Below are positions 8,792-52,049 of a DNA stretch of 59,504 nt, one piece after another. The first letter of the stretch is position 1. Every line of letters starts with the position of its first letter. Source of the DNA: an uncultured Muribaculaceae bacterium (GTDB lineage Bacteria > Bacillota_I > Bacilli_A > RF39 > UBA660); the NCBI GenBank assembly GCA_964630225.1, contig CAZVUK010000002.1, positions 1 to 59,504 on the forward strand. Direction: 5' to 3'. Under the pieces are notes generated by a model that was not told the DNA's origin, did no database searches, and was given only the letters and a program-made list of their open reading frames with translations. The position numbers and the translations under genes are program-made.

Positions 8792-9556
8792 ATGAAAGAA
8801 AAGACTAAAATAAGTATTTTGATAAGAAATCTATTGTTTTTAACAATCATTTTAGCGGGAAGCTTCTTTATTTACGATAGAGTCATTCTTCCAACCCTTA
8901 AAGATGAAGAAAAAGTGCCTGTCTTGCAGGAGGCAGAAACTTTTGAAGCCGATGTCGATATGAACTATATATCTGATTTTGTAAACTTCTTTAATAATTC
9001 TTCTTATAATGATTTGGAAGCATATTTTTTCAGGCAAGAGAGTATGAGTGGTAGCCAGGTGAATAATAAAGTCAAAACAAGTATAGCCATAGTAAGACTC
9101 TTAAATACTGAAACCAATGTCATATCAGCAGATGCAGTAAGGCAAGAAGTAAAAAAGATATTTGGTAATAATACGGTATATGAGCCAGTTAGTCCTATCG
9201 TATTAGGATACACAATTAACTATGATAAAGACAATGATAATTTTCATATTATCAATGATGGAAACGTTCCAAAAGAGACAATGGTTTTTACTAAAGTTGC
9301 CGATAGTTTTATAAAAAAAGATAATACTATCGAAATCGAAGTTAAGTTTGCCTATATGAAAGTTACTAGTGAAAACGGAAAATTTCTTATCAAAGTTCAC
9401 AGTGCTATTGAAACAAGTAATTATAATAATTTAGGTTACATTATAGATGGTGAGATAAGTGATGATATGATTCAAACTTTCCCCACCTATATATTTACCT
9501 TTAGCTCAGAAGGAGACAATGTTATCTTTAAATCAGTACATATTAAAAGTAAGTAG
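8792..9556 (+). CDS. Hypothetical membrane-anchored protein
   Basis: 254-aa ORF starting 7 nt after the previous stop, with a single N-terminal TM (LIRNLLFLTIILAGSFFIY). No recognisable motif. Confidence 0.6.
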   Translation: MKEKTKISILIRNLLFLTIILAGSFFIYDRVILPTLKDEEKVPVLQEAETFEADVDMNYISDFVNFFNNSSYNDLEAYFFRQESMSGSQVNNKVKTSIAIVRLLNTETNVISADAVRQEVKKIFGNNTVYEPVSPIVLGYTINYDKDNDNFHIINDGNVPKETMVFTKVADSFIKKDNTIEIEVKFAYMKVTSENGKFLIKVHSAIETSNYNNLGYIIDGEISDDMIQTFPTYIFTFSSEGDNVIFKSVHIKSK

Positions 9557-9575
9557 AAACTACTTACTTTTTTTA
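9548..9575. terminator. Bidirectional rho-independent terminator between convergent genes
   Basis: Perfect 9-bp stem agtaagtag / ctacttact with loop aaa. Flanked by an A-run (9544-9547) and a T-run (9569-9575). Overlaps both stop codons. Confidence 0.7.
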
Positions 9576-19436: not shown

Positions 19437-20426
19437 ATGTTTTTAACAGTATGTGAAAGCTCAAGTTTATTAAATTTAATTAGTTTGGTTAAAAGTTTAT
19501 TAGAAATTATAACTACTATAATACCAATCGTATTAATACTTATGATAACGTTTGATTTATCGAAGTTAGTTATCGATGTTGATGAAAAAACGAAGCAAGC
19601 AATTACTAAAAAAGTAATTAACAGATCGATTGCGGCTGTGGCAGTGTTTTTTATTCCTACTTTGGTAAACGTTTTTACCAATCGTTTAGGACAACAAAGT
19701 TATTCGCAGATGACTTGTTGGACAAATGCGACAACTGAAAAAATAGCAAGATACACCGCTAAAGAAGAGGAAGCCAAAGCTCTAGAACAAGAAAAAATTA
19801 CGATAGCCAAAGGTGAAGCAGCAATTGAAAGAGCCCTAGTCGAGCAAGAACGTGAAAAAGCTCGTAAAATAGCCGAGGAAAAAGCAGCGTCGGTAAAAAA
19901 TAGAATTAAACCGTACTTCCAAACAGATTATCCACATCTACCATATAATCCATATAACACAGCGATGTGTGGCTCTATGGCTGGTTGTGCATGCGGCTTA
20001 ACATCAGTGGCAGTTGTAGCCACAGCTTTTAATGGTGAAGCCGGAAACGATCCAGTATCAGTTAGAAATTGGATATGTAAGACTGGATCATGCACTGACT
20101 CAGGAACAGCTTGGGCGGGAATGATTTCTTATCTTCGACAAGGAGGATTAAACGTAACTGAAGTTCAGTATACAAATTCTCCAGAAAGAATAATGAACTC
20201 TCTTAGAAGCGGAAGAGAACTAATTATACCTTTATATCATAACAATGGTTCTTGCGATACACCATTCACAACCGGTGGTCACTACTTTGTTTTAACCGGA
20301 ATTGCTACCAATGGTGAAATTGAAATAGTCCAAGTATCAAGCAGACGTCAGACGGCTCAAACATGGCCTATAAGTACAATCACAAAATGTATGAATGGTG
20401 CTATTTACGTATCGAAAGGAGCATAA
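19437..20426 (+). CDS. Cassette 2 hydrolase: 2-TM module, coiled coil, C39-like cysteine peptidase
   Basis: N-terminus MFLTVCESSSLLNLISLVKSLLEIITTIIPIVLILMITFDLSKLV, then TCWTNAT. E/K-rich linker. C-terminal motifs YFQTDY...GCACGLTSVAVVATAF...GGHYFVLTG. Confidence 0.78.
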   Translation: MFLTVCESSSLLNLISLVKSLLEIITTIIPIVLILMITFDLSKLVIDVDEKTKQAITKKVINRSIAAVAVFFIPTLVNVFTNRLGQQSYSQMTCWTNATTEKIARYTAKEEEAKALEQEKITIAKGEAAIERALVEQEREKARKIAEEKAASVKNRIKPYFQTDYPHLPYNPYNTAMCGSMAGCACGLTSVAVVATAFNGEAGNDPVSVRNWICKTGSCTDSGTAWAGMISYLRQGGLNVTEVQYTNSPERIMNSLRSGRELIIPLYHNNGSCDTPFTTGGHYFVLTGIATNGEIEIVQVSSRRQTAQTWPISTITKCMNGAIYVSKGA

Positions 20427-30818: not shown

Positions 30819-32450
30819 ATGTCAAAGATATCGATAATAACATATGATAAAAAGCTTATATTTGATACAGTAAACTTTATCGAAGAAAAAGTTAATTTAA
30901 ATAACACTAATGTTATCGATGTCGAAACTATGTATTTTAGCGATATATATATTGCTAAAAACATGTACACTATGACTAGTTTTTTAAATCTGATTGTTGC
31001 TAAAAAGAATATAAAAGAACTTGTCATAAAGAAAATAAATATAGCTCCACTAGTTCTTAAATTGACAAAAGATATCCCGATACTAAGTAAAGTAACTATC
31101 GAAGAAGATGTAAACATTAACTATGAAACATACGAGGCTTTAACCTTAGCTGAACATCTTAAAGAAGTCGAATGTTTTTCGATGCCTCCGTTTATGTTTG
31201 ATAGTTTAGATCACAAATATAATAAAACCATAAAGCTACGTCAAAAAGAGATGTTCTACAGTCCCTTTATGAAGGTTAATAAATTAGAAAGCTTCGATGA
31301 AATATATTATTGTCGTAAGATAATCATCGCTGAAAAACCAAGTAGCACAGATCTCGAAGACATAGCATCATTTTTTAGAATCAATAATAGAATAAGATTG
31401 ATAGAGTTTCACTATTACGATTACAATCTAGTAACGACTATTATCGCTTATTTGAACAGAAATAATGCTCAAAACGTTTTGATTAAAATTAAACATATTG
31501 AAAATGAGAATGTTATCTCGCTTGTAAATCAGTTAGAAAAAAGCCATGCTCGGTATTTTAAGAACAACAAAGTCAGAATTAAAATTGATTACAAGAATGA
31601 ACACAAAAGCAAATACTTCTTAAAACAGTTTAATCTTAGTTTATTTAGAGCGATACTAATTATTGCAATAGTTATTATTTTACTTTTACTAAGCGTATTT
31701 AATTACAAGGAAAGACAGGATGCCAAAGCTAGCAAAAAAATAGACCAAGTAACTCAAGGAATTGGTGATGAAATGAGTGGTATTCAAGCAGCTATCGATA
31801 GCGAAATGGATGCCCAGGAAGCAATCATGGCCGCTGAAGCTAGTGGTACTGAACTTCCACACGATGCTTCTTATGATATTTATTTTCAAAAACTTGAAAA
31901 AGTTTGGGATAGCTTAATAAGTAAAAACGAAGACACGGTAGGCTGGCTAAAAGTAAATGGCAGTAAAGTTGATTACCCGGTCGTACAGGCCAAAGATAAT
32001 ATCTATTATCTAAACCGCAACTTTTACAAAAAAAGAAATATCTATGGTTGGATATTTATGGATTATCGTAACAAAAAAGCTAAGATGGATCAAAATACTA
32101 TTATATATGGTCATAGAACTAACAACGGCATTATGTTTGGTACACTTAAAAATGTGTTAAAGAAATCGTGGTACACAAATCCTGCTAATCAGGTGATAAG
32201 TTTCAATACGACAGCTGAAACTCATAACTGGAAAATATTTTCTATTTATACAATCGGTGCAACCGATGATTATTTATACAATAATTTTTATAACGATAAT
32301 CAAAGAGTCGATTTTTTCAACAAACTTAGAAATCGCAGTATTCATAACTTTGCAGTCGAAGTCGGAGCTAAAGATAAAATTCTCACTTTGTCTACATGTT
32401 ATGAGGGAGCAGAAAAACGATTAGTCATCCACGCAAAGATGATTGACTGA
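30819..32450 (+). CDS. srtB: Class B sortase fused to a ~270-aa N-terminal cytoplasmic domain of unknown function
   Basis: The C-terminal ~200 aa match SrtB hallmarks: VGWLKVNGSKVDYPVVQAKDN, IFMDYRN, TIIYGHR, ILTLSTC, RLVIHAK. TM at LFRAILIIAIVIILLLLSVF (about aa 273-292). Nothing is recognisable in aa 1-270. Confidence 0.85.
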   Translation: MSKISIITYDKKLIFDTVNFIEEKVNLNNTNVIDVETMYFSDIYIAKNMYTMTSFLNLIVAKKNIKELVIKKINIAPLVLKLTKDIPILSKVTIEEDVNINYETYEALTLAEHLKEVECFSMPPFMFDSLDHKYNKTIKLRQKEMFYSPFMKVNKLESFDEIYYCRKIIIAEKPSSTDLEDIASFFRINNRIRLIEFHYYDYNLVTTIIAYLNRNNAQNVLIKIKHIENENVISLVNQLEKSHARYFKNNKVRIKIDYKNEHKSKYFLKQFNLSLFRAILIIAIVIILLLLSVFNYKERQDAKASKKIDQVTQGIGDEMSGIQAAIDSEMDAQEAIMAAEASGTELPHDASYDIYFQKLEKVWDSLISKNEDTVGWLKVNGSKVDYPVVQAKDNIYYLNRNFYKKRNIYGWIFMDYRNKKAKMDQNTIIYGHRTNNGIMFGTLKNVLKKSWYTNPANQVISFNTTAETHNWKIFSIYTIGATDDYLYNNFYNDNQRVDFFNKLRNRSIHNFAVEVGAKDKILTLSTCYEGAEKRLVIHAKMID

Positions 32451-32527: not shown

Positions 32528-34162
32528 ATGAAAAAAAATCAAAAAAATTGTTCATTTTCAATCAAGTCATTTCTCATTACTGTGGTATTAATGACAGCTT
32601 ATTATTACTTCTTACTACCACCGATGAACTTACATAGTCCAGAGTTTTGGGTGTTTATATCGCTCTTTTTATTCATCTATGGAATATCAGCATCAATATT
32701 TGAAGGAGCGGCCTTGTTTGATGCTAAAAAAACAAAAACTAAAACGCCAGCACCGATGCCGCGCAGTTTTAGAATTGTTTTAGTCATCCCCGCAATCATT
32801 TTGGTGATTATGCTAATCAATTTTATTGCCTCACCAGTATTTAATGCAAAAACTTATTCTAAACGTATTACTATTGACGAAGGAACAGACTTCGCCGAAG
32901 AAGTAGCCGAAGTAGATTTTGCTAAGATACCGCTACTTGATAAGGCGTCAACTAGAAAAGTTGGTGATAGAGTAATGGGGGAGTTACCAGAACTTGTATC
33001 ACAGTTTGATGTATCTAATTTATACACACAGATCAATTATAAAGATACGATTGTCAGAGTTACACCATTAGAATACTCAGATGTCATCAAATACTTTACT
33101 AATCGTAAAGATGGAATCAAAGCATATATAATGGTTGATTCAACTACCGGAAAAAGCAGCCTTGTAAAGCTTGATAAAGGTATGAAATACATGCCTAGTG
33201 CTATATTTGGTGAAGACTTATATCGCAAACTTCGTTTTTCATATCCATTTGATATCTTTGGAGAAATTTCATTCGAAGTAGACGATGAGGGTAATCCATA
33301 CTGGATAATCCCAGTTAAAACCTATACAGCTGTTGGTATGAGAGAAGAAATCAGTAGTTTAATTATCTTTAATCCAGCGGATGGAACAAGTGTTAAACAT
33401 AAAGTTAAAGACGTCCCAACTTGGGTTGATCACGTCTTTACATCGGAACTTGTTTTATCTCAAACTAACGACTGGGGTTCATATCGCGGAGGATATTTTA
33501 ACTCAATTTTCGGTCAAAAGAATGTCGTTAAGACAACCGAAGGATACAATTATGTCGTTATGAATGACGATGTATACTTATACACAGGTATAACATCAGC
33601 TGTTAGAGATGAATCTAATATCGGTTTTATTTTAACTAATCTAAGAACTAAAGAAACACGTTACTATAAGGTTGCTGGTGCTGAAGAGTTCTCGGCTATG
33701 TCTAGTGCCGAAGGGCAAGTGCAACAGATGAAGTATCGCTCTACGTTCCCGCTACTAATTAATTTAAAAGGAAAACCTACCTATTTAATATCATTAAAAG
33801 ATAATGCTGGTCTTGTCAAAATGTATGCTTTCGTCGATGTTCAAAACTATCAAAATGTTACTGTTACTAGTGCTAGTGAAGGAATTGAACAAGCAGCTAC
33901 TAACTACTTAAGTGGTCGCAAAGATACTGTTTCTCCTAGTGAGAACTTAGTTTCTAAAATCACGGTTAAGCAAATAAACTCAGCTTCAAATGACGGAGAA
34001 ACTTCATATTACATTCTAGATAATGAAAATAAAAAGTATAAGGCTCCAATTAAAGCTGGTGAAGCTATTCTTCCATTCTTAAGAAGTGGAGAAGTTATAA
34101 AAATCACTTACTTTGAAGGAGACAAAATAAATACTATTACAAAGGTCGAAGCCAATGATTAG
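32528..34162 (+). CDS. Hypothetical membrane protein with a large extracytoplasmic domain (544 aa)
   Basis: Three N-terminal TM segments followed by about 440 aa of soluble sequence. SD aggagga upstream. No motif recognised. Confidence 0.65.
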   Translation: MKKNQKNCSFSIKSFLITVVLMTAYYYFLLPPMNLHSPEFWVFISLFLFIYGISASIFEGAALFDAKKTKTKTPAPMPRSFRIVLVIPAIILVIMLINFIASPVFNAKTYSKRITIDEGTDFAEEVAEVDFAKIPLLDKASTRKVGDRVMGELPELVSQFDVSNLYTQINYKDTIVRVTPLEYSDVIKYFTNRKDGIKAYIMVDSTTGKSSLVKLDKGMKYMPSAIFGEDLYRKLRFSYPFDIFGEISFEVDDEGNPYWIIPVKTYTAVGMREEISSLIIFNPADGTSVKHKVKDVPTWVDHVFTSELVLSQTNDWGSYRGGYFNSIFGQKNVVKTTEGYNYVVMNDDVYLYTGITSAVRDESNIGFILTNLRTKETRYYKVAGAEEFSAMSSAEGQVQQMKYRSTFPLLINLKGKPTYLISLKDNAGLVKMYAFVDVQNYQNVTVTSASEGIEQAATNYLSGRKDTVSPSENLVSKITVKQINSASNDGETSYYILDNENKKYKAPIKAGEAILPFLRSGEVIKITYFEGDKINTITKVEAND

Positions 34163-34835
34163 AAAATTATTAATCTTAATTCTTGTGGCCTTTATTGTCA
34201 CGGCTTGTGCTAAAGAAACTAAATCGCCTCTTCCCTTTGTCAAAGAGTATGAAGCATTAAATGAATCTAAGACTCAGTCGGGTAAAACATACAGCAGTCT
34301 AAAACTTAAGAATGCTGAACGTATCAAATATGCTAATTATGATGAAATTGATAAAGCCTTAGAGAAAGATGCCATAATCTACTTTGGATTTCCAGAATGT
34401 CCATGGTGTCGAACGCTAGTTCCGGTCTTACTCGAAAGTGCTAAAGAGGCAGGAATCAAAGAGATACTGTATATGAACATTCTAAACGAAAGAAATTCAT
34501 ATGAACTAGATGAAAATGGCAAAGCAGTTTTAAAATCAAATGGTACTAAAGGCTATAACGCCCTAGTCGAAAAATTAGCAAATCATTTAGATGATTATAC
34601 ATTAACTAGTGAAGATGGCCAAAAGATTGAAACAGGAACTAAACGAATATTTGCTCCAACTTTAATCTTTGTATCTAAAGGGAAAGTAATCTATGTTCAT
34701 AAAGGAACAGTTGATTCACAAGAAGATCCGTATCTAGAATTAACTAAAGAACAAAAAGAAGAACTTATGAAAGTACTTATCGATAATATGAATAAAGTAC
34801 TAGACATCACTTGTGAAGAAGAGACAAAGTGCTAA
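34155..34835 (+). CDS. Thioredoxin-fold lipoprotein (CxxC)
   Basis: 8-nt overlap with the upstream gene. Lipobox FIVTAC. Redox motif FGFPECPWCRTLVP. Confidence 0.75.
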   Translation: MIRKLLILILVAFIVTACAKETKSPLPFVKEYEALNESKTQSGKTYSSLKLKNAERIKYANYDEIDKALEKDAIIYFGFPECPWCRTLVPVLLESAKEAGIKEILYMNILNERNSYELDENGKAVLKSNGTKGYNALVEKLANHLDDYTLTSEDGQKIETGTKRIFAPTLIFVSKGKVIYVHKGTVDSQEDPYLELTKEQKEELMKVLIDNMNKVLDITCEEETKC

Positions 34836-41185: not shown

Positions 41186-44100
41186 ATGTTTAATAGGAAG
41201 CTCGAAAATGATAAAGGTTTTACCCTAGTAGAAATCATATCGACAGTAATTATACTATCGATAATATTATTAATTGCAGTACCTGCAATTGGAAATTTAC
41301 TAAATGGATTTAGGACAGATTATTATAAGAAATTACAAAAGACTGTTAAAACCAGTGGTCAAGATTATATAAATGATAATCGCCGACTTAGACCTTCAGG
41401 AGTTTTTGAATCCTATGTTATTACAACTAAAGTTTTAGAGACCGATAAAAAAATAGATAAAGTAGTAGACTATCGTAAGAAAGCTTGTTCTAATACAAGC
41501 TATGCGATAGTTATTAAAACGGCAGATAAAAAATATCAATATGAAAGTTGTCTTTCTTGCCCGGAAGATAGTTATACAACGACTCTTAAAGATCGTCCAT
41601 ACTGTCACCCAGCGTGGAAGAACAATGATAATATATCTATAGAATTGTCTACCCCGCCAAAAGATATTTATATTCCTATAAATGCAAATATGGCATACAT
41701 AAGAGAAAAATTAGGAATAAAGAAACAGATTGTTAAAAAAGACAGTAGTGGCAAGATTATTGCTGCTCTTACGGTTGATGATGAAGATGTTATCCTGCCA
41801 GAAAATATCAATGGTTTTGTTGGTACAACAGCTGTTTCAGGACAAGCTATTTATAATTATGGAGGAAAGACGATTCAAACGAATGTTCATATCTTCCAAA
41901 ATGAAGCACCTAAAGTTACGATGACTAACATAAGAAATGGAACTCCTTATACAGCAGGAACCTGGACTTCAGGAGTTAGAGTAATACTGGCAGCCAACGA
42001 TGAATATTTTAATATCTTAAACTTAAAGATTTCAGAATATCAAGTATATGATGTTGCGAAAGGCACTTGGACAAAAATTACTTCTTGTCCAGCGGAATCT
42101 ACTTCTTGTACGATCAACTATAATACGACGATGGTTAGAAATTACCGATATAGGATTATCGTAGCGGGAGGATCGACAAGTAAAATAACGGCAGCTTATA
42201 GCTTCAAAATAGATGCTTCAGTGCCAAATTGTAATATAAACATGATTGATGGAAGTGGCGGTGCATATACAGGTGCTTACATCAACACTAATCAAGTGAC
42301 CATTAGATACTCGGCAGATGATCCGCAGTATGAAGGACTTCCGTTAAGTAGTATGTCTAAAGCAGAACTTTATATCACTAGCTCAAATCCAAATGAACCT
42401 GTTGTTACACAGACACTTACTGCAAACGTTGCACCTTGGCGAACAATTCATACGATAACCGATGAGGGAAGCTACAGCATCATGCTGAAATGCTACGATA
42501 CTGTTGGTAACTATAATACAGCCAGCGCAAACATAAATATTTTACGCGATATATCAGTTAAGTTTTATTCGCCAACTTCGACAACCTTATATGCAACGAC
42601 AACTTATCAATATAATAAAGCCCTTGGAACTCTTCCTACGCCAGCGCGTACTGGACATACTTTCCAAGGATGGTTTACAACGCCAACAACTGGTGGAACG
42701 AAGGCGGTTGCTACGACAGTGCTTACAACAACATCTAATACTTACAGTCTATTTGCTAGATGGACCGCAAATATATATACATTAACATATAATTCAAATG
42801 GTGGAACAACCGTTACTAACCCAACTAGTTATACCTATGGTGTTGGGGTATCATCGTTTACCAACCCAACGAGGACGGGATATCGTTTTGCTGGCTGGCA
42901 TGATGGAACATCGGTTAAAGCTAGTATCACGGCAACCGATCTTGGGAACAAAACTTTAACAGCGCAGTGGACAGCTAACACCTATACCATTGTTTATAAT
43001 GGTGCTGGAAATACGTCAGGTACGATGGCTAATACGAAATGTACTTACAACGCAACTTGTACTCTTCGAGCTAATGCTTTTGTTAGAACGGGAAATAATT
43101 TCATGGGATGGTCTTTAACTAATGGAGGAGTGGTTGCTCACAACAACAGTGCCACCGTTAGTAACTTAAGTTCGACTCATAATGCAACGATCAATCTTTA
43201 TGCTATCTGGAGTCGCAGTAGTTATACAATTACATATAACTTAAACGGCGGAACTAATCCATCTACCAATCCAGGATCATATACATATGGAGATACTATT
43301 ACCTTTGCCAGTCCAACAAGAACAGGATATCGTTTTGATGGATGGTATAAAGAAGCAGCTTTTACAAATAGAGTTACGGGCATTACAGCAACAGGTACCG
43401 GAGCGGTAGTTGTCTATGCTAAATGGCTTGCCAACACTTATTTCATCGATTATGCAGCTAATGGTGCAACTAGTGGTACGATGGCTAGAACAACCTGTAC
43501 TTATGGAACTGGTTGTACCCTTCGAACTAACACTTTTGCTAGAACTGATTATCGTTTTAACAACTGGAGTTCGGGTGGTAAGACTTATGCTGATTTAGCT
43601 AACGTCACAAATCTTACAGCAACCCATAATGGAGTAATAACTATGACTGCTAACTGGGTTCAACGTGTAAATTATATATATCTTCTTCATGGATTTAGTG
43701 GAGGAACCTCCAATCTCTATGGCTTTGGAACCCAATCTATAAATATGAATGCCAATGCACCATATTATTTGGATACAGCGGGTTATGTCGATGCCACAGC
43801 TCAAGCCAATGGGTATAGCTTAGCTACTTATGTATATCCTGCAGCAGGGTGGACTTGGAGTACAAGAACGCTAATTTCTGGTCTGGCGCCAAATAAATAT
43901 AATGGTGTATACTTCACTGCTCCAGAGACACAAGAATATAGAGTAACATCATATATGTTTCCAAATGGAGGAACACGTCTTGGGACTGTAACTTGGTCGG
44001 GAAGCACTCTTTACCAAGATCAAACCTTCCAACAAGGAAGCATTTGGAAGACGGTCGATACCGGAACTAATATTACAGTCCCGGCTGTCGCGGCGGCTAG

Positions 44101-45127
44101 GACGGGTTATAGCTTCACTGGCTGGCTCGGGGAGAATGGAACAATTTACAATGCTAGCAATGTTGTAGGAATGACCGCAGCTTTAGCGGGAACAGACTTA
44201 AACTTTGTCTTTAGAGCACAATGGCTGGGTAATCCTTACACCGTTAGTTTTAATGCTAACGGCGGAACCGGAACAATGGCAGCTCTTAACTGCCGTATTG
44301 GTCAAACCTGTACTCTTCCTGCCGAAGCTTACACTAACAACTGTTATAAATTTGATGGTTGGGCAACAAGTGCCGCTGGTGCTGTTGTTTATAGTGATAG
44401 AGCGACCGTCGCTCTTACCGCAAATGTAACCCTTTATGCGAAATGGAGTGCCAACTATGTTAACAACACAACTACTTGTGCTGCTTGTAGCGTATCCTGT
44501 GGCGGCGGAACACAAACTTGTACCGTCACGAAAAAAGATACGGCAACCGGTGTTGCCTGCCCAGCAAGTTTAAATACCAGTTACTCTCAAGCTTGTAATA
44601 CACAATCGTGCTGTTCGTCAGTAACGACAAGTTATGGTGCATGGGGTGCTTGTAGTGCATCTTGTGGTGGCGGAACGCAAACAAGATCAGTAACGACAAA
44701 AAGTACATATAATGGAGCAACCTGCAGTACTTCGACGCAAAGTCAGGCATGTAACACCCAAACTTGTCTTGTCGAACCTAACGCAACAATATATGCCCAA
44801 CAGTTAACGACATGTGTAAACGGTGTTTACTTTTACACAACACAGGCGCAAAACCCATCGAGATGGATAACAACAGAAATGACAGTACACTGGGTTATAA
44901 GTGGTGCCGTGGTTGCAACCTATTACGGTGATTTAGCAGGAACGAATCCGGGAGGTTTTGGTCCATGGTATGCTTATAATTTTGGAGCACCACCACCTGC
45001 TCCAGCAACGACTAGTGGCTACTATGTAACTAGACATACGGAACTATACTTTAGGTTAAAAGGTAAAATAGCAACGACTGGAGCGGCAATTATTAACCAG
45101 TCAGGATATGGAGGATGTTCAGTATAA
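41186..45127 (+). CDS. Giant (1,313 aa) type IV pilin-like modular surface protein A: prepilin leader, pilin-like head, about 7 Listeria-Bacteroides-type repeats, 2 TSP1-like repeats, C-terminal domain
   Basis: Strong SD gggtaggagg. N-terminus MFNRKLENDKG|FTLVEIISTVIILSIILLIAVP is a class III signal with Glu+5. Seven T(G)Y.F.GW motifs. TSP1-like motifs CSVSCGGGTQTC and WGACSASCGGGTQTR. Confidence 0.85.
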   Translation: MFNRKLENDKGFTLVEIISTVIILSIILLIAVPAIGNLLNGFRTDYYKKLQKTVKTSGQDYINDNRRLRPSGVFESYVITTKVLETDKKIDKVVDYRKKACSNTSYAIVIKTADKKYQYESCLSCPEDSYTTTLKDRPYCHPAWKNNDNISIELSTPPKDIYIPINANMAYIREKLGIKKQIVKKDSSGKIIAALTVDDEDVILPENINGFVGTTAVSGQAIYNYGGKTIQTNVHIFQNEAPKVTMTNIRNGTPYTAGTWTSGVRVILAANDEYFNILNLKISEYQVYDVAKGTWTKITSCPAESTSCTINYNTTMVRNYRYRIIVAGGSTSKITAAYSFKIDASVPNCNINMIDGSGGAYTGAYINTNQVTIRYSADDPQYEGLPLSSMSKAELYITSSNPNEPVVTQTLTANVAPWRTIHTITDEGSYSIMLKCYDTVGNYNTASANINILRDISVKFYSPTSTTLYATTTYQYNKALGTLPTPARTGHTFQGWFTTPTTGGTKAVATTVLTTTSNTYSLFARWTANIYTLTYNSNGGTTVTNPTSYTYGVGVSSFTNPTRTGYRFAGWHDGTSVKASITATDLGNKTLTAQWTANTYTIVYNGAGNTSGTMANTKCTYNATCTLRANAFVRTGNNFMGWSLTNGGVVAHNNSATVSNLSSTHNATINLYAIWSRSSYTITYNLNGGTNPSTNPGSYTYGDTITFASPTRTGYRFDGWYKEAAFTNRVTGITATGTGAVVVYAKWLANTYFIDYAANGATSGTMARTTCTYGTGCTLRTNTFARTDYRFNNWSSGGKTYADLANVTNLTATHNGVITMTANWVQRVNYIYLLHGFSGGTSNLYGFGTQSINMNANAPYYLDTAGYVDATAQANGYSLATYVYPAAGWTWSTRTLISGLAPNKYNGVYFTAPETQEYRVTSYMFPNGGTRLGTVTWSGSTLYQDQTFQQGSIWKTVDTGTNITVPAVAAARTGYSFTGWLGENGTIYNASNVVGMTAALAGTDLNFVFRAQWLGNPYTVSFNANGGTGTMAALNCRIGQTCTLPAEAYTNNCYKFDGWATSAAGAVVYSDRATVALTANVTLYAKWSANYVNNTTTCAACSVSCGGGTQTCTVTKKDTATGVACPASLNTSYSQACNTQSCCSSVTTSYGAWGACSASCGGGTQTRSVTTKSTYNGATCSTSTQSQACNTQTCLVEPNATIYAQQLTTCVNGVYFYTTQAQNPSRWITTEMTVHWVISGAVVATYYGDLAGTNPGGFGPWYAYNFGAPPPAPATTSGYYVTRHTELYFRLKGKIATTGAAIINQSGYGGCSV

Positions 45128-45138
45128 TGAAAAACAAA
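43649..45138 (+). repeat. Copy 1 of a 1,490-bp perfect direct repeat (3' third of giant gene A plus the first 12 nt of the downstream gene)
   Basis: Line-by-line comparison at a constant 6,300-nt offset. Mismatches occur up to 43648/49948, identity runs from gctaactgggtt... through ...agtataatgaaaaacaaa, and the copies diverge at 45139/51439. Confidence 0.9.
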
Positions 45139-45891
45139 AAAATACCAATAATTTTTATAATTATTCTAGGTTTAATCTTAATAGGAGTAGGAGTCTTCTT
45201 TCTAAAAGATTCCAAAATTACTAAACCTAATACAAAAACAGAAAGTCAGAAGGTCGAAGCAGCTTTAAAACTATTGATCGATGATCTATTAACTAAAGAT
45301 GCTTCACCCGAAGCTTTCAATACTAAATACAATGTCGATTATTTCAGCGACGCATATTTACCGTTTGCTGAGAAAACAATTGTTACTTATAAAGCAAAAA
45401 TTTCCTCACCAGATACTGAACAACAGGCATGTCTAGCTTTTGTTGATGTCAACTACAATGATTTAATCAAAGCCTACAAAAAGGCCTTAGATTACAAAGT
45501 ATCGATTGATGAAACAAAGAAAGAAGCATCCTTAACGATCAAAGTCTATCAACTTCGTCATTATCACAATGTTTTAACCAAAGTTAGCGATTTAATAATG
45601 GCAGATATTGAAGATAAGTCGGCTCTTGGTGAAGAAGTGTTTTTCGCTAATAGGTGTCTAGCTTTAAAAGCAATGAATAAAAACACGGATGAGTTTAACA
45701 AAGGTGAGAACTTAAACGTCAAAGTAAATTATAAATTTGATGGTGATAAATTTATCCTTGAAGATTATAGTTTATTAGGAAACGCTCTTTCAGGAATGAC
45801 TTATATTATGCAACTTGGAGGAAACGATGAGATTGAAGCAGTTATGAAACCGTTGGCAGAAAAGATTTACAAAGATGTTCAAAAAAATTGA
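45127..45891 (+). CDS. Bitopic membrane protein, accessory family 1 (copy a)
   Basis: TAATG overlap with giant gene A. MKNKKIPIIFIIILGLILIGVGVFF TM, then a soluble domain of about 225 aa. Paralog of 45875-46651 (shared ...DYK(V/I)(S/D)ID..., ...RC(L/Q)A(L/I)KAM(N/D)K...). Confidence 0.7.
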   Translation: MKNKKIPIIFIIILGLILIGVGVFFLKDSKITKPNTKTESQKVEAALKLLIDDLLTKDASPEAFNTKYNVDYFSDAYLPFAEKTIVTYKAKISSPDTEQQACLAFVDVNYNDLIKAYKKALDYKVSIDETKKEASLTIKVYQLRHYHNVLTKVSDLIMADIEDKSALGEEVFFANRCLALKAMNKNTDEFNKGENLNVKVNYKFDGDKFILEDYSLLGNALSGMTYIMQLGGNDEIEAVMKPLAEKIYKDVQKN

Positions 45892-46651
45892 TAAACAAAA
45901 AGTATTAATTATTCTTATTGCTATTATATTAGTCATAGGGATATTAGAATTCAGTAAAAGCTTTAAGTCTAAAACAACTAATTCATACGACAAAAACTTA
46001 ATTAAAGATGAAGTTATCAATCTAATAAAAGATATGACTGCTAAAGATGTAGTAATCGAAGACTTTAAATTAAAGTATAATTATTATGAATTCTCAAATG
46101 AATTTAATAGCGATAGTTTTCCTTTTAGTAACAAAAACATCTTAGCTTATATACCAGAATCAGCTATCGCTAATTCGAAAACTAGAGAGTGCATCGAAAT
46201 AGCCCACAACAGTTATCAAAAGATATATGATATGTATATTGATAATCTTGATTACAAAATCGATATCGATAGTGATAATAATTTAATAGATATCAAACTA
46301 AAAAATTTTTATCTGATTAGATATCACTATATTTTGACTCTTGTTACTGATATGTACAAGGGAGAAAGCAACGTCAAATTAAATGAAAATGAATTCTTTG
46401 GATATCGCTGTCAAGCAATAAAAGCTATGGACAAAGAACTTGATAACTTTAAAAATAAAGCTACTTACGTCAGAGTAAAATTAAAGTTTGAACTCGATGA
46501 TGAAAGAATTAAAATAGCTAATACTGATACATTAGGTTATTATCTTACAGCTAGAAACTACATAGATACTTCTAATGACACATCGATGGCTAAAGGAACT
46601 GAAAAAATCAAAGAAGAAGCTAAACGCTACTTTGAAAAAGCTCAAAAATAA
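45875..46651 (+). CDS. Bitopic membrane protein, accessory family 1 (copy b)
   Basis: Overlaps the previous gene by 17 nt. MFKKIDKQKVLIILIAIILVIGILEF TM. Same length (258 aa) and colinear similarity to copy a. Confidence 0.7.
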   Translation: MFKKIDKQKVLIILIAIILVIGILEFSKSFKSKTTNSYDKNLIKDEVINLIKDMTAKDVVIEDFKLKYNYYEFSNEFNSDSFPFSNKNILAYIPESAIANSKTRECIEIAHNSYQKIYDMYIDNLDYKIDIDSDNNLIDIKLKNFYLIRYHYILTLVTDMYKGESNVKLNENEFFGYRCQAIKAMDKELDNFKNKATYVRVKLKFELDDERIKIANTDTLGYYLTARNYIDTSNDTSMAKGTEKIKEEAKRYFEKAQK

Positions 46652-46696: not shown

Positions 46697-47407
46697 ATGA
46701 AAAATAAAAAGATTCAAGTATTGATTTATATTTTATTGATCGTAGTTGCAATAATTATTTTAGTTTTTGCTTTACCTAAGCTGTTCAGTAATAAGAAAGC
46801 TGACAAAGCAGGCGAAAAACCAGCAGAACAAAAATATAAAATAGTAAAACAATCTAAATCAGATAAAATAATTTATGATTATAAGAAATTTAAAACAGAG
46901 TTTATCAAAGTTGGTTTTGAAGAGACGAGTTGTAATGATGATGTAATAAGCGGTTTAGATCCACTTATATGTCATGCAAAGCGTAATGTTTTTGCCGAAA
47001 AAGAAATAGATGACATCCTATCATTAACCTTTAATGGGGAAGTGGTAGAAACTATGAGTGTCAATTTAAAATACGATGGCGATGACTTTAAAACTAAAAC
47101 ATTAGTCAAAGATGCTAATAACATCGTAAATAACTTAATTGATTATAAAGTTGATGATGCTATCATCAAAGATTTACTTGAAAAAATAACTAAGACCCCT
47201 ACTGAGCTTGGTGTATCAACCCATAAAGACAGTAAAGATTATAGAGTATTTTATAATATGAAATTTGTCGAAGGAAATGAAATAAATCCAAGATACTTCG
47301 ACCTAAGTATAATCTTTTATCAAAAGTCGACGATAATTGACTTAGAAACACCTGTTACTGAAGCAGAAAAAGAAACGGAATCAAGTAAATCAATTATGGA
47401 GAGATAG
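46697..47407 (+). CDS. Bitopic membrane protein, accessory family 2 (copy a)
   Basis: SD taggagga. TM VLIYILLIVVAIIILVFAL. Paralog of 51427-52029 (YDYKKFKTEFIKVGFEETSCNDDVISGL vs YPYNKFKTELIKIGFVQAKCNDDKVSGM). Confidence 0.7.
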   Translation: MKNKKIQVLIYILLIVVAIIILVFALPKLFSNKKADKAGEKPAEQKYKIVKQSKSDKIIYDYKKFKTEFIKVGFEETSCNDDVISGLDPLICHAKRNVFAEKEIDDILSLTFNGEVVETMSVNLKYDGDDFKTKTLVKDANNIVNNLIDYKVDDAIIKDLLEKITKTPTELGVSTHKDSKDYRVFYNMKFVEGNEINPRYFDLSIIFYQKSTIIDLETPVTEAEKETESSKSIMER

Positions 47408-47431
47408 AAAAAGTGCTATTGCACTTTTTTT
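47408..47431 (+). terminator. Rho-independent terminator between the two giant-gene units
   Basis: Stem aaagtgc / gcacttt with loop tatt, followed by a T-run. Confidence 0.7.
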
Positions 47432-47441
47432 GTTGATTTCA

Positions 47442-47470
47442 ATTTACTTTTCAAATACTTATGATATAAT
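47442..47470 (+). promoter_or_regulatory. Candidate promoter of giant gene B (extended -10 TGaTATAAT)
   Basis: tgatataat at 47462-47470, with tttact about 16 nt upstream. A similar acttatgataat box precedes giant gene A (about 41143-41156). Confidence 0.4.
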
Positions 47471-47497: not shown

Positions 47498-50400
47498 ATG
47501 AAAAAGATTAATAATAATGTCAAGGGCTTCACACTTATAGAAATAATATCGACAGTTATCATTTTGTCGATAATTTTATTGATAGCAATACCAACTTTTA
47601 GTAGAATTTTGGCAGGATTTAGAAAAGATTACTACAGTAAATTACAAGATACTGTTCAAAAAGTAGGTAAAGACTATATAAATGATAATAGGCGTCTTAG
47701 ACCAGTTGGAGTATTTCAGACAAGGATTATTAAAGTACCTGTTTTAGTTCAGGCTAAAAAGATGGATGCTCTAATTGATTACAAAAAGAAACCTTGTTCA
47801 ACGGATAGTTATATAGTTGCAGTTAAAACAGCTGATAAAAAATTTGAATATACGAGCTGTTTAACTTGTTCGGAAGATCAGTATCAAACCGATGTAAATG
47901 ATTATAAATATTGTCATCCTGCGTGGCTTACTAACGATAATATATTTGTTGAAATGTCGCCACCTCCGGCAGATATATACATACCACTTAATGCAAGTAT
48001 CGATTACATAAAAAGTAAATTAGGTATTACTAAAAGTATCGTTAAAAAAGATAGTACAGGTAAAATAATAGCTTCATTACCGGTTGATGATAAAGATATT
48101 ATCTATCCTAATAATATAAATTCATTTATTGGGACAACTGCTCAAGATGGAGTAGCTTTCTATCAGTATGGAAGTCAAACCATTCAAACCAATGTTCATA
48201 TTTATCAAAACTCAGCACCTAAGTTAAGTTTTGTTAATGTTAAGAATGGAACTGATTATGTACCGGGTACTTGGTCTTCGGCAGTTAGACTTACGATCGA
48301 AGCAAATGACCAGTATTTTGGAATATTAAATCTAACTATTAAAGAATATCAATATATGGACGAAAGTGGCGTATGGAAAAAGATTGATAATTGTACGGCC
48401 GGTTTAAAGTCTTGTACTTTCACATATAATGAAACAATGAATTCATCGATGAAGTTTAGAATTATCAATAACGGAGATGCAGCTAGTAAAGAGACGTCTT
48501 TCTATAGTGTCAGAGTTGATGCTTCGACTCCAAACTGTTATATGAGCATGCTCGATGCAAGTGGTGCTGCCTACAGTGGTAATTACATCAACACTTCATC
48601 AATAAGAGTTAATTATAAAGCCGATGATCCGCAGTATGCAGGTTTACCTGCTAGTAGCATTCAAAATGTTGAACTATATATAAATGGAGTACTTACTGAT
48701 ACACATAATCTAAATGGAACAAACGTCTATACATGGACGACAATTAAAACCATTACTAATGAAGGATCCTACAGCGCGATGCTAAAGTGTTACGATACCG
48801 TAGGAAACTTTAGTACGGCAAATGGAACAATTAATATTTTAAGAGATATCGATGTTCAGTTCTATTCACCATCTTCAACGACGCTATTCCAAACACTTTC
48901 ATATCAATATAACAAAGCCATGGCAAGTCTTCCAACTCCAAGTAGAACGGGATATACTTTTAATGGCTGGTTTGATACTCCGGCATCAGCGGGAACGCAG
49001 TATCTTGCTACAACCGTTTTGGATACGACAATAGAACCACTTAAGTTGTTCTCGAGATGGACAGCTAATATCTACAATATATCTTATGTATATAATGGAG
49101 GAACAACTGTCTCTAACCCAAGTAGCTATGTTTTTGCTACCGGTGTTGCTGGTTTTGCAAGCCCAAGTAGAACCGGATACATATTCGGTGGATGGTATAA
49201 AGAAGCATCACTAGTTACGAGAGTTACTAGCATATCGACAACTGATTATGGAAACTATACACTCTATGCCAAGTGGACCCCAATTACTTATACGATGACT
49301 TATAATGCTAATGGTGGTGCAGGTACGATGGCAAGTACCGTCTGTACTTATGATACAGTTTGTACTTTGAGAACTAATACTTTCACCAAAACGGGAACGA
49401 GCTTTATCGGCTGGGCAAACAGCACTACAGGAGCGGTTGTCTATGCCAATGGTGATACCATTAACAACTTGACGACAACTAACGGAGCAAGTTTTACCCT
49501 CTATGCAAAATGGCAAAATAATACTTACGGAATAACATACAGTTTAGGCGGAGGAACTCATAGTGGAAATCCGACCTTCTATACATATGGAACAGGAACA
49601 GCTAGTTTTGCCAATGCGAGCAGAACCGGATATATATTCGGTGGATGGTATAGCGACTCAGCACTAACTGTTAGAGTGACAAGTATTTCTACGACCGCAA
49701 CAGGCGATATTACCCTCTATGCAAAATGGACCGCTATTACTTACACTATAGCTTATGCTGCAAATGGTGGAAGTGGCGCAATGTCCAATACAACTTGTAC
49801 TTATGGTGTAGGCTGTGTGCTAAGATCTAACGCCTTTACGCAAACTGGATATCGTTTTACCCTATGGTCATACGGCGGAAGTAATTACAATGACGGAGCA
49901 ACCGTAACTAATTTAACAACAACTAATGGAGCTGTTTTAACATTTACAGCTAACTGGGTTCAACGTGTAAATTATATATATCTTCTTCATGGATTTAGTG
50001 GAGGAACCTCCAATCTCTATGGCTTTGGAACCCAATCTATAAATATGAATGCCAATGCACCATATTATTTGGATACAGCGGGTTATGTCGATGCCACAGC
50101 TCAAGCCAATGGGTATAGCTTAGCTACTTATGTATATCCTGCAGCAGGGTGGACTTGGAGTACAAGAACGCTAATTTCTGGTCTGGCGCCAAATAAATAT
50201 AATGGTGTATACTTCACTGCTCCAGAGACACAAGAATATAGAGTAACATCATATATGTTTCCAAATGGAGGAACACGTCTTGGGACTGTAACTTGGTCGG
50301 GAAGCACTCTTTACCAAGATCAAACCTTCCAACAAGGAAGCATTTGGAAGACGGTCGATACCGGAACTAATATTACAGTCCCGGCTGTCGCGGCGGCTAG

Positions 50401-51427
50401 GACGGGTTATAGCTTCACTGGCTGGCTCGGGGAGAATGGAACAATTTACAATGCTAGCAATGTTGTAGGAATGACCGCAGCTTTAGCGGGAACAGACTTA
50501 AACTTTGTCTTTAGAGCACAATGGCTGGGTAATCCTTACACCGTTAGTTTTAATGCTAACGGCGGAACCGGAACAATGGCAGCTCTTAACTGCCGTATTG
50601 GTCAAACCTGTACTCTTCCTGCCGAAGCTTACACTAACAACTGTTATAAATTTGATGGTTGGGCAACAAGTGCCGCTGGTGCTGTTGTTTATAGTGATAG
50701 AGCGACCGTCGCTCTTACCGCAAATGTAACCCTTTATGCGAAATGGAGTGCCAACTATGTTAACAACACAACTACTTGTGCTGCTTGTAGCGTATCCTGT
50801 GGCGGCGGAACACAAACTTGTACCGTCACGAAAAAAGATACGGCAACCGGTGTTGCCTGCCCAGCAAGTTTAAATACCAGTTACTCTCAAGCTTGTAATA
50901 CACAATCGTGCTGTTCGTCAGTAACGACAAGTTATGGTGCATGGGGTGCTTGTAGTGCATCTTGTGGTGGCGGAACGCAAACAAGATCAGTAACGACAAA
51001 AAGTACATATAATGGAGCAACCTGCAGTACTTCGACGCAAAGTCAGGCATGTAACACCCAAACTTGTCTTGTCGAACCTAACGCAACAATATATGCCCAA
51101 CAGTTAACGACATGTGTAAACGGTGTTTACTTTTACACAACACAGGCGCAAAACCCATCGAGATGGATAACAACAGAAATGACAGTACACTGGGTTATAA
51201 GTGGTGCCGTGGTTGCAACCTATTACGGTGATTTAGCAGGAACGAATCCGGGAGGTTTTGGTCCATGGTATGCTTATAATTTTGGAGCACCACCACCTGC
51301 TCCAGCAACGACTAGTGGCTACTATGTAACTAGACATACGGAACTATACTTTAGGTTAAAAGGTAAAATAGCAACGACTGGAGCGGCAATTATTAACCAG
51401 TCAGGATATGGAGGATGTTCAGTATAA
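47498..51427 (+). CDS. Giant (1,309 aa) type IV pilin-like modular surface protein B (paralog of A)
   Basis: N-terminus MKKINNNVKG|FTLIEIISTVIILSIILLIAIP. Same domain order as A. The first ~820 aa are diverged from A (roughly half to two-thirds identical by eye). The last ~490 aa are identical. Confidence 0.85.
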   Translation: MKKINNNVKGFTLIEIISTVIILSIILLIAIPTFSRILAGFRKDYYSKLQDTVQKVGKDYINDNRRLRPVGVFQTRIIKVPVLVQAKKMDALIDYKKKPCSTDSYIVAVKTADKKFEYTSCLTCSEDQYQTDVNDYKYCHPAWLTNDNIFVEMSPPPADIYIPLNASIDYIKSKLGITKSIVKKDSTGKIIASLPVDDKDIIYPNNINSFIGTTAQDGVAFYQYGSQTIQTNVHIYQNSAPKLSFVNVKNGTDYVPGTWSSAVRLTIEANDQYFGILNLTIKEYQYMDESGVWKKIDNCTAGLKSCTFTYNETMNSSMKFRIINNGDAASKETSFYSVRVDASTPNCYMSMLDASGAAYSGNYINTSSIRVNYKADDPQYAGLPASSIQNVELYINGVLTDTHNLNGTNVYTWTTIKTITNEGSYSAMLKCYDTVGNFSTANGTINILRDIDVQFYSPSSTTLFQTLSYQYNKAMASLPTPSRTGYTFNGWFDTPASAGTQYLATTVLDTTIEPLKLFSRWTANIYNISYVYNGGTTVSNPSSYVFATGVAGFASPSRTGYIFGGWYKEASLVTRVTSISTTDYGNYTLYAKWTPITYTMTYNANGGAGTMASTVCTYDTVCTLRTNTFTKTGTSFIGWANSTTGAVVYANGDTINNLTTTNGASFTLYAKWQNNTYGITYSLGGGTHSGNPTFYTYGTGTASFANASRTGYIFGGWYSDSALTVRVTSISTTATGDITLYAKWTAITYTIAYAANGGSGAMSNTTCTYGVGCVLRSNAFTQTGYRFTLWSYGGSNYNDGATVTNLTTTNGAVLTFTANWVQRVNYIYLLHGFSGGTSNLYGFGTQSINMNANAPYYLDTAGYVDATAQANGYSLATYVYPAAGWTWSTRTLISGLAPNKYNGVYFTAPETQEYRVTSYMFPNGGTRLGTVTWSGSTLYQDQTFQQGSIWKTVDTGTNITVPAVAAARTGYSFTGWLGENGTIYNASNVVGMTAALAGTDLNFVFRAQWLGNPYTVSFNANGGTGTMAALNCRIGQTCTLPAEAYTNNCYKFDGWATSAAGAVVYSDRATVALTANVTLYAKWSANYVNNTTTCAACSVSCGGGTQTCTVTKKDTATGVACPASLNTSYSQACNTQSCCSSVTTSYGAWGACSASCGGGTQTRSVTTKSTYNGATCSTSTQSQACNTQTCLVEPNATIYAQQLTTCVNGVYFYTTQAQNPSRWITTEMTVHWVISGAVVATYYGDLAGTNPGGFGPWYAYNFGAPPPAPATTSGYYVTRHTELYFRLKGKIATTGAAIINQSGYGGCSV

Positions 51428-51438
51428 TGAAAAACAAA
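49949..51438 (+). repeat. Copy 2 of the 1,490-bp perfect direct repeat
   Basis: See copy 1. The identical antisense ORFs in the track (44198-44515 = 50498-50815; 44526-44750 = 50826-51050) corroborate it. Confidence 0.9.
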
Positions 51439-52029
51439 TATTATTTATTAATAAGCATAATAGTTATCGCGTTAATTACTGGAATCGTAATACTCTTAAT
51501 TAGGATTCCAATCAATAAAGAGGGAACATATAAAACGCTTAAACAAAGTCAGGAAACTAAAACGATAATTTATCCCTATAATAAGTTTAAAACAGAACTG
51601 ATCAAGATCGGTTTTGTGCAAGCTAAATGTAATGACGACAAAGTAAGTGGTATGGAAAACATTGTCTGTGCCGCTACCAAAGATAACAATGTACTTCAAA
51701 ATGTCGATTCGCTTAACTTCACTTATAATGGCGATGTTATAGAAACTTTAATTCTAAAACTAAATTATGAATCATTTGATTCTAAAACAGTAAAAAGAGA
51801 CATAAAAGCAATTATTAATAATTTCATCGTCTTAAATTTAGAAGAAAAAACAGTCGCTCAGCTAAAAGAAAAATTAGATCGTAAGAACACTGTTCATGGT
51901 TCAACAACATCCTTAGTTGTCGGAGATTATTACACTCATTATAATCTCAAAGAACATGAAAGTGAAAATGATAATTATTATAGCGTTTCAGTAACAATGT
52001 ATTTAAAAGCAACTCCAACTGTAGAATAA
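51427..52029 (+). CDS. Bitopic membrane protein, accessory family 2 (copy b)
   Basis: TAATG overlap with giant gene B. TM YYLLISIIVIALITGIVILLI. Paralog of 46697-47407. Confidence 0.7.
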   Translation: MKNKYYLLISIIVIALITGIVILLIRIPINKEGTYKTLKQSQETKTIIYPYNKFKTELIKIGFVQAKCNDDKVSGMENIVCAATKDNNVLQNVDSLNFTYNGDVIETLILKLNYESFDSKTVKRDIKAIINNFIVLNLEEKTVAQLKEKLDRKNTVHGSTTSLVVGDYYTHYNLKEHESENDNYYSVSVTMYLKATPTVE

Positions 52030-52049
52030 AAGGCAAGTAATTGCCTTTT
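52029..52049 (+). terminator. Rho-independent terminator ending the giant-gene locus
   Basis: 8-bp stem aaaggcaa / ttgccttt with loop gtaa, followed by a short T-run. Confidence 0.65.

Follow-up and report, generated by a model that had tools for sequence, protein, structure and literature searches.

True thrombospondin type-1 repeats in giant pilin-like proteins of uncultured low-GC gut Bacilli

Are the thrombospondin type-1-like repeats near the end of a pilin-like protein in an uncultured bacterium genuine members of that family, and if so, what are they doing there? In the standard account, the thrombospondin type-1 repeat (TSR) is an animal adhesion module that spread laterally to the Apicomplexa (PMC3417536). 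The case considered here lies on contig CAZVUK010000002.1 of assembly GCA_964630225.1, of which we analyzed a stretch of 59,504 nucleotides (hereafter the window). A reading of the bare sequence (the original prediction) had placed two such repeats at 44477-44767 and a second copy at 50777-51067. The translated peptide is the one quoted there and is the same in both copies; the true start of the pair is two codons further upstream, at 44471 (50771 in the copy). We find here two true TSRs in tandem, homologous to eukaryotic TSRs and encoded in each of two paralogous genes, A and B, whose products share 73% identity overall.

41186 to 45127, plus strand: gene A, an intact open reading frame (ORF) for a modular type IV pilin-like protein of 1313 amino acids (aa)
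47498 to 51427, plus strand: gene B, an ORF of 1309 aa, paralogue of A with the same architecture
44471 to 44614, plus strand: TSR1 of A (residues 1096-1143), degenerate
44615 to 44767, plus strand: TSR2 of A (residues 1144-1194), spondin-type
50771 to 50914, plus strand: TSR1 of B
50915 to 51067, plus strand: TSR2 of B

Sequence profiles and structure prediction agree on the identity of the repeats. The 97-aa repeat stretch matches the Pfam families TSP_1 (PF00090; 45.9 bits, E 6.5e-12) and TSP1_spondin (PF19028; 51.7 bits), for which the gathering cutoffs are 21.6 and 41 bits; the TSR family forms clan CL0692 (PF00090/PF19028/PF19030). TSR2 clears both cutoffs by itself (38.4 bits, E 1.4e-9, and 42.2 bits), which bears out the earlier view that the second repeat fits the TSR consensus. 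TSR1 by itself stays under the PF00090 cutoff (18.3 bits, E 2.7e-3), so that the proposed Pfam check of both repeats succeeded for TSR2 and failed for TSR1. A phmmer search of the PDB sequences recovered the TSRs of thrombospondin-1 (TSP-1) at E 4e-9, as well as properdin and semaphorin-5A. In an AlphaFold2 model of residues 1088-1313, each TSR is predicted to form three strands, with a predicted local distance difference test score (pLDDT) of 83-96 across both repeats and 86-94 in TSR1. The best PDB matches to the TSR model found by Foldseek were 1LSL, 7YYK and 3R6B (TSP-1 TSRs) and properdin, at probability 1.0; the top seven were all TSP-1 or properdin TSRs (E 3e-5 to 9e-4), and the alignments showed 26-29% identity with the human structures. 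The predicted three-stranded fold and the profile matches together identify genuine TSRs and dispose of the fear that this was just a Cys/Gly-rich linker. Convergent evolution of the TSR likeness, which the original prediction had allowed for, is ruled out by the significant profile and PDB sequence E-values.

TSR2 belongs to the spondin-type (C1-C4) class as defined by Xu et al. (bioRxiv 10.1101/779553): it has six cysteines, counting C1143, and none after the Arg. C1143, its N-terminal cysteine, is the second Cys of an 'SCC' linker. Eukaryotic members of the class (PF19028; TSP-1 1LSL, properdin) resemble the window repeats in sequence, in the motifs CSxSCGGGTQ(T)R and QACNTQxC, in the six Cys of TSR2, in the elongated three-stranded fold (predicted here) and in the 'CC' junctions, which properdin also has. 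Unlike them, the window TSRs are bacterial and fused to a pilin, their C1-C2 spacing is two residues longer, and TSR2 has a single Trp (W1153, in YGAW) and a single Arg (R1167) in place of the full WxxW/RxR arrangement. The CWR ladder is thus incomplete in TSR2, and it is absent in TSR1. Accepted TSRs, such as that of CCN3, may also have incomplete CWR layers; the gaps therefore weaken the label 'canonical' and leave homology unaffected.

TSR1 contains neither Trp nor Arg, in keeping with its sub-threshold Pfam score and with the earlier remark that the first repeat lacks the Trp layer. It shares CSxSCGGGTQT and SQACNTQxC with TSR2 and has lost the normal strand-A sequence; by sequence it is clearly a degenerate internal duplicate of TSR2. 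In register with TSR2, both ladder places of TSR1 are taken by cysteines, Cys1098 aligning with Trp1153 and Cys1112 with Arg1167 (codons within 44477-44521). These two cysteines would form a fourth disulfide in place of the Trp-Arg layer. TSR1 has seven Cys besides the first Cys of the 'CC' linker, and the last of the upstream InlB B-repeats has three, Cys1053 (codon 44342-44344) being among those of the region. Because both counts are odd, an interdomain disulfide between that repeat and TSR1 is plausible.

What kind of protein carries the pair? From the N terminus, A consists of a leader, an alpha-1 helix, a small beta head, immunoglobulin (Ig)-like domains, seven InlB-B (Flg_new) repeats, TSR1, TSR2 and a C-terminal domain. 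The minus-strand ORFs that overlap A and B are short and without support.

41186 to 41377, plus strand: class III (prepilin) signal peptide and alpha-1 helix of A (PF07963 23.6 bits, residues 8-31)
41633 to 42565, plus strand: beta-sandwich stalk of A, Ig- or fibronectin type III (FN3)-like (residues ~150-460; all-beta in the AlphaFold2 model)
42566 to 44455, plus strand: InlB B-repeat array (Flg_new/TIGR02543) of A, with a poorly matching insert at ~825-1015
44768 to 45124, plus strand: C-terminal domain of A, 119 aa with Cys1210 and Cys1311, the presumed distal head
51068 to 51424, plus strand: C-terminal domain of B

The N terminus of A reads MFNRKLENDKG followed by FTLVEIISTVIILSIILLIAVPAIG, with cleavage predicted after Gly11 and Glu at mature position 5; the leader of B is MKKINNNVKG, followed by FTLIEI. 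Both are class III signals, NDKG before FTLVEIISTVIILSIILLIAVP in A and NVKG before FTLIEIISTVIILSIILLIAIP in B, with about 20 hydrophobic residues and Glu at +5. The prepilin family N_methyl (PF07963, cutoff 21.2 bits) is matched at 22.1-23.6 bits, and TIGR02532 (cutoff 16.3) at 22.4 bits in A and 20.2 bits in B; the remaining N-terminal matches were to the competence pilins ComGC/GE/GF only, far under their cutoffs. AlphaFold2 models residues 1-470 of A with a helix at 14-64 (51 residues, pLDDT 65-92) and a small beta head with four Cys (strands 76-125), the helix and head together scoring 72-92. The profile scores, the Gly-FTLVE junction with Glu5 and the modeled 51-residue alpha-1 helix thus sustain the description of the host protein as pilin-like.

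Beyond the head, the predicted stalk has pLDDT values of ~73-91 at residues 150-340 and is poor farther on. It has no Pfam family, and its domains match tandem Ig/FN3 arrays in Foldseek, among them GhpA, NCAM2 and SiiE. The InlB B-repeats match PF09479 in seven stretches (199.7 bits in A, 211.3 in B), PF18998 in five stretches of A and TIGR02543 at 106 and 130 bits (E 6e-31 in A), with repeat starts at residues 531, 680, 752 and 1018 of A. Searched with the whole proteins, Pfam returned Flg_new (seven stretches, E 6e-60), TSP_1 (34.8 bits) and N_methyl (22.1 bits) for A and Flg_new (E 1.4e-63), TSP_1 (34.6 bits) and N_methyl (23.5 bits) for B. Each protein contains exactly 30 Cys. Neither has an LPXTG or class-B NPQTN-type sorting signal or a hydrophobic tail, both ending in INQSGYGGCSV, and sortase anchoring is ruled out by the missing signal. 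A modular pilin has been defined as a protein with an N-terminal IPR012902 motif and at least one domain not specific to pilus biology (PMC8179133); in A and B the IPR012902/N_methyl motif is followed by Flg_new seven times and TSP_1 twice.

The original prediction had set the TSRs near the tip of a surface fiber. They do lie in the distal C-terminal end; the tip itself, however, would be the 119-aa domain that follows them, the TSRs being subterminal. This C-terminal domain is an orphan. It has no Pfam or NCBIfam family, a search of 1.84e9 representatives returned paralogue B and two low-complexity matches only, and no relative was found in JGI metagenomes. The single other homologue is at locus L003, with 69% identity over A residues 1099-1312. 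Comparison with related proteins of low-GC gut Bacilli indicates that this arrangement is general. The TSR array is subterminal in 26 of 26 Bacilli TSR pilins, and in 25 of these a C-terminal domain of 52-242 aa follows it (the second pilin of locus L009 has 2 aa only). By BLAST these C-terminal domains fall into at least 15 mutually unrelated classes. The TSRs of the Bacilli mostly have one Trp, compared to two in other bacteria. A conserved TSR module followed by a hypervariable end is what would be expected of a scaffold that presents a specificity determinant.

We therefore read A and B as modular type IV pilin adhesins in which a disulfide-stapled TSR neck carries a variable C-terminal head, a reading to which we assign a probability of about 0.65. 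After export, prepilin peptidase would cut between the Gly and the Phe, and the hydrophobic alpha-1 helix would dock the protein in a type IV filament, possibly of Com type, most likely as a tip subunit present in few copies. A long disulfide-stapled stalk would be built of the Ig-like, InlB-B and TSR modules, and all 30 Cys could pair. The TSR pair would serve mainly as a thin, rigid neck presenting a lineage-specific head, and the head would set what is bound: a host surface, mucus or another microbe. Filament incorporation and the nature of the ligand, like the role of the partner proteins described below, are what we infer from architecture and gene context.

Several observations weigh against this reading. 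Genes for prepilin peptidase, assembly ATPase and platform protein are found neither in the window nor beside related cassettes. To our knowledge, a 140-kDa subunit is far above the size of any characterized pilin. Foldseek recovered no pilin structure for the 470-aa N-terminal model, the matches being dominated by Ig-like arrays. The AlphaFold2 model of the C-terminal domain has pLDDT below 50 and is not usable, and the head role is for that reason argued only from position and variability; the variability in turn comes from BLAST comparisons, which could miss distant kinship. Finally, the organism is an anaerobe, in which extracellular disulfide formation is not guaranteed.

Some of these points would suit an arrangement in which A and B are no filament subunits at all, the class III signal and helix acting as export signal and membrane anchor of a pseudopilin-anchored surface adhesin. 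No type IV machinery lies near any cassette, a protein of 1313 aa is very large for a pilus subunit, a stalk of about three Ig-like domains, seven InlB-B repeats and two TSRs could span the wall, and the co-transcribed bitopic partner could hold the pilin-like protein in the membrane. We nevertheless consider this arrangement unlikely. Gly-1, Phe+1 and Glu+5, the residues concerned with processing and packing, are kept in both paralogues and in ~21 relatives; large C-terminal modules are on record in modular pilins that are carried on filaments (PMC8179133); two cassettes (L022 and L042) adjoin comEA-comEC; and machinery genes commonly lie elsewhere in the genome.

To place the repeats in a wider context, we scanned one genome per GTDB species for the TSR pattern and confirmed the candidates by tblastn, using a 6-sequence alignment (a 34-sequence alignment was too divergent). 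At least 320 bacterial TSR loci were found, in Bacilli, Bdellovibrionota, Patescibacteria, Acidobacteriota, Myxococcota, Proteobacteria and others; some of the lineages live in soil, lakes or groundwater. TSRs are therefore not rare in bacteria. The earlier assumption that they are is also contradicted by a pilin-TSP1-TSP1 entry in Dataset S1 of PMC8179133. The best 80 of the at least 320 loci comprise ~28 low-GC loci from gut metagenome-assembled genomes (MAGs) labelled Bacilli, Bacillales UBA5026, Tenericutes or Mycoplasma sp., a few further contigs that are probably mis-binned, many loci from Bdellovibrionota and Patescibacteria and others from Acidobacteriota, Myxococcota, Rickettsiales, Binatia and Gammaproteobacteria. 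In IMG/VR, 42 TSR-encoding stretches lie on viral contigs (L108-L147), several of them giant-virus MAGs (GVMAG). Among the matches listed, the nearest relatives of the window TSRs are bacterial, at 46-72% identity, and the closest come from human, rabbit, mouse, rumen and chicken gut MAGs, which agrees with the host-associated setting suggested earlier.

Two side observations belong to this survey. The membrane-anchored TSR arrays P0004 and P0025 resemble the viral ones. Locus L048 (PAAU01000036.1, labelled Micrococcales, 62% GC) has an ORF of more than 3590 aa with 31 TSR units that runs off the contig end; the choice is between a remarkable protein of an actinobacterium and eukaryotic contamination of the MAG.

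These data bear on the idea that the TSR pair is itself adhesive, a module for heparan sulfate, extracellular matrix or CD36-type ligands that was taken from the host or mimics host TSRs. Eukaryotic TSRs are known to bind glycosaminoglycans, matrix or receptor ligands. A heparan-sulfate site has been predicted in the CCN3 TSP1 paper, the O-fucosylation-type motif CxxSCG is kept in the window repeats, and the closest relatives come from the animal-gut MAGs just listed. A precedent exists in Streptococcus sanguinis PilB, a pilin whose eukaryote-like von Willebrand factor A (vWA) module binds host matrix proteins (PMC8179133). Against this, no recent host-to-bacterium transfer need be invoked when TSRs are spread over at least 320 bacterial loci, some in lineages of soil, lakes and groundwater, and over giant viruses, and the nearest relatives are bacterial (46-72% identity) compared to 26-29% identity with human TSR structures. 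Of the Trp/Arg ladder that forms the positively charged groove, TSR2 retains a single Trp and a single Arg and TSR1 nothing, and the net charges are low, +1 and +2. Moreover, it is the domain beyond the TSR array that varies across the family, with the array itself conserved, as one would expect of a scaffold. On balance an adhesive TSR pair is quite unlikely: we do not favor heparin or matrix binding by it, judging from its residues, nor do we favor acquisition from a eukaryote or host, given the bacterial relatives and the free-living and giant-virus carriers.

The relatives in low-GC gut Bacilli define a family. Among the best 80 of the at least 320 loci, ~21 low-GC Bacilli loci encode proteins that begin with (K/R)GFTLxE, nearly every TSR protein of the group. 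A and B belong to this TSR-bearing modular pilin-like family, which recurs in uncultured low-GC gut Bacilli. The order of its parts is fixed: pilin module, variable stalk, TSR array and highly variable C-terminal domain, usually with a bitopic membrane protein encoded next. The L057 protein (981 aa) aligns with A residues 1-676, and its gene, like A, follows RmuC and rubrerythrin; the L003 gene, which has the A/B-type C-terminal domain, precedes the same 151-aa ORF, AsnRS and RluB as gene B does. The genes are therefore chromosomal and positionally conserved in related species. A prophage or mobile-element origin of A and B is ruled out by the housekeeping flanks and by the synteny in L003 and L057. 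The window AsnRS is 86% identical to the L003 copy and ~71-74% identical to proteins labelled 'Bacilli bacterium' or 'Tenericutes/Mycoplasmatota'. L003 (labelled Muribaculaceae, 34% GC) and L004 (labelled Phocaeicola vulgatus, 27% GC) are short contigs with Bacilli-type TSR-pilin genes, almost certainly mis-binned into Bacteroidota genomes.

Tandem cassettes occur at L015, L009, L022, L006 and L081, with two in L015 and L006, three in L009 and four in L022. At L022 (CAKPDM010000012.1) comEA, comEC and a DnaI-like gene are followed directly by a run of four consecutive pilin-motif genes, one of which (7181-11539) encodes a 1452-aa pilin-like protein with 14 TSRs; comEA/comEC adjoin the cassettes in L042 as well. 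These features raise a bolder and doubtful possibility, that TSR-pilin cassettes form an unrecognized, fast-diversifying adhesin system of uncultured gut Bacilli with small genomes, in which heads on a conserved, disulfide-stapled TSR neck are swapped by gene conversion between tandem paralogues and displayed on a Com-type filament for attachment to host mucosa or to other microbes. If this were true, there would be a parallel with the enrichment of TSRs in predatory or epibiotic lineages (Bdellovibrionota, Patescibacteria, Myxococcota, Rickettsiales); the TSR would then be a bacterial module of cell contact of long standing, and its accepted 'animal-origin' history would need revision.

Why are the TSRs of A and B identical? 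They lie within an exact repeat:

43649 to 45138, plus strand: copy 1, made up of the 3'-terminal 492 codons of A with its stop codon and of the opening codons of the overlapping next gene
49949 to 51438, plus strand: copy 2, inside gene B

The two copies are equal base for base over 1490 bp and lie exactly 6300 bp apart, with a sharp boundary; 1479 identical bases precede the end of the stop codon and 11 follow it, into the overlapping next gene. Up to residue ~822 the A and B proteins share 46-72% identity; beyond it they are 100% identical. The second TSR copy that had been noted at 50777-51067 is thus identical by virtue of lying in this block. Judged from the sequence pattern, recent gene conversion between the tandem paralogues is the simplest reading, and it would therefore have placed one head on two diverged pilin/stalk modules.

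Perfect identity over 1490 bp with a knife-sharp edge, between paralogues that are elsewhere 46-72% identical, is also what a collapsed or chimeric repeat could leave behind, in which case the second TSR region (50771-51067) would be an assembly artefact and there would be one true TSR gene, a further point against our reading of the locus. The contig is metagenome- or MAG-like, and its proteins fall in tiny clusters. An artefact is nonetheless very unlikely. The reading frames of A and B run on unbroken across the boundary, and in each copy the following gene starts in the same overlapping register; related MAGs normally have their TSR-pilin cassettes in tandem; where gene B lies, L003 independently has a gene with TSRs and this C-terminal domain, and where gene A lies, L057 has a TSR pilin. 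Tandem paralogues commonly undergo gene conversion, which is a sufficient explanation.

Each pilin gene of the window is followed by one or more genes for small membrane proteins:

45115 to 45891 and 45875 to 46651, plus strand: two small N-terminally anchored membrane proteins directly after gene A, paralogues with 32% identity
46697 to 47407, plus strand: small bitopic membrane protein of the partner family with an N-terminal transmembrane helix, last gene of the A unit
51415 to 52029, plus strand: small bitopic membrane protein of the partner family, its start overlapping the end of gene B

The signals around these genes suggest two transcription units, one of A with three small membrane-protein genes and one of B with a single such gene. 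A strong Shine-Dalgarno sequence, AGGAGG, stands 7 nt upstream of the gene A ATG; a terminator-like hairpin (47403-47434) and a promoter-like site (47443-47470) precede gene B, and another terminator-like hairpin (52028-52049) follows the second unit. The overlap of the 51415-52029 start with the end of gene B suggests translational coupling. The products of 46697-47407 and 51415-52029 are paralogues (36% identity), and the latter is 58% identical to the product of the syntenic L003 gene 689-1309. An iterated profile built from the window partners recruits genes directly after TSR pilins in L003 (689-1309), L037 (5072-5734), L015 (6949-7545 and 9917-10513) and L026 (6825-7361). Members of this family are ~180-240 aa long and frequently overlap the upstream TSR-pilin gene at start and stop, and the gene directly after a TSR pilin almost always encodes a small bitopic membrane protein. 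The family may be a dedicated partner, chaperone or anchor. Neither it nor the 45115-46651 pair has a Pfam or NCBIfam family, and the pair has no relatives in the other loci examined. An exported lipoprotein at 34155-34835, 6 kb upstream, has the lipobox VTAC, a CPWC thioredoxin motif and fold and weak similarity to the disulfide isomerases PedC/BrcD and TrbB; it is a candidate catalyst of the A/B disulfides on the strength of that motif.

How do A and B compare to known proteins? The described modular pilins include S. sanguinis PilB (pilin and vWA) and PilC (pilin and lectin; Raynaud et al. 2021, PMC8179133). A and B share with these an N-terminal class III signal and pilin module, grafted non-pilin modules, a monoderm host and predicted adhesive display, whereas they are about three times larger, have more than 12 extra domains, lie outside a pilus operon and are accompanied by small bitopic partner genes. 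Dataset S1 of the same study lists one pilin-TSP1-TSP1 protein (IPR012902-IPR000884-IPR000884) and nine proteins that combine a pilin with Listeria/Bacteroides repeats (IPR012902-IPR013378). P0039 (335 aa) is of the former type: bacterial like A and B, it has a prepilin motif followed by two TSRs, but it is small, without an Ig-like/InlB-B stalk, and has a different Cys-rich tail, two-Trp TSRs and neighbors (L002) unlike those of the Bacilli cassettes. P0062, P0084, P0106 and P0123 share the prepilin leader and Flg_new arrays (P0062 is 28% identical to A in an alignment that covers 63% of A); among the matches listed, none except paralogue B has a TSP1 Pfam domain. In apicomplexan TRAP/MIC2 (vWA and TSR on a stalk), as in A and B, the TSR lies near the distal end of an extended extracellular region, and the TRAP-type structures 4HQL and 4HQO were among the weaker Foldseek matches. 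These proteins differ in having a type I transmembrane helix on a gliding motor, eukaryotic secretion and a documented ligand-binding TSR, and they show no homology with A and B outside the TSR.

Literature searches found no dedicated study of bacterial TSRs or TSR pilins; the one paper found to name both a thrombospondin-type domain and type IV pilins, each once, deals with type 4 pili, vWA and surface sensing in P. aeruginosa. Bacterial TSR annotation (databases already hold a bacterial 'thrombospondin type-1 domain-containing protein', P0033), pilin-TSR architecture and modular pilins are already known; A and B add an unusually large variant with an orphan tip domain. Their combination of modules is unique, and both are singletons in a collection of 5.8 billion proteins. 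The main added value is the family-level picture rather than the single locus. TSRs occur across many bacterial phyla and are, in gut Bacilli, a systematic part of pilin-like surface proteins, and the logic that a eukaryote-like domain signifies host mimicry is weakened accordingly. The survey delimits an adhesin family, as yet unstudied, within a poorly known and uncultured part of the gut microbiota, and it offers a tractable hypothesis in which the TSR neck is conserved, the head can be swapped and a membrane protein serves as dedicated partner.

The remainder of the window (~32% GC) contains mostly the housekeeping genes of a walled anaerobe, among them those for NrdD/NrdG, rubrerythrin, MurD, HtpG, GltX, AsnRS, RluB and a class B sortase. 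The class B sortase domain (TIGR03064, 163.6 bits) makes up the last 180 residues of a 543-aa protein (30819-32450) whose long N-terminal region is unannotated; the next gene encodes a 544-aa protein without a family, and the sortase protein is unrelated to A and B. Two paralogous Peptidase_C39_2 proteins (17750-18808 and 19437-20426), one with a weak T4SS_pilin match, are likewise unrelated to the TSR finding; their genes adjoin ABC-transporter genes and one for a CHAP-domain protein.

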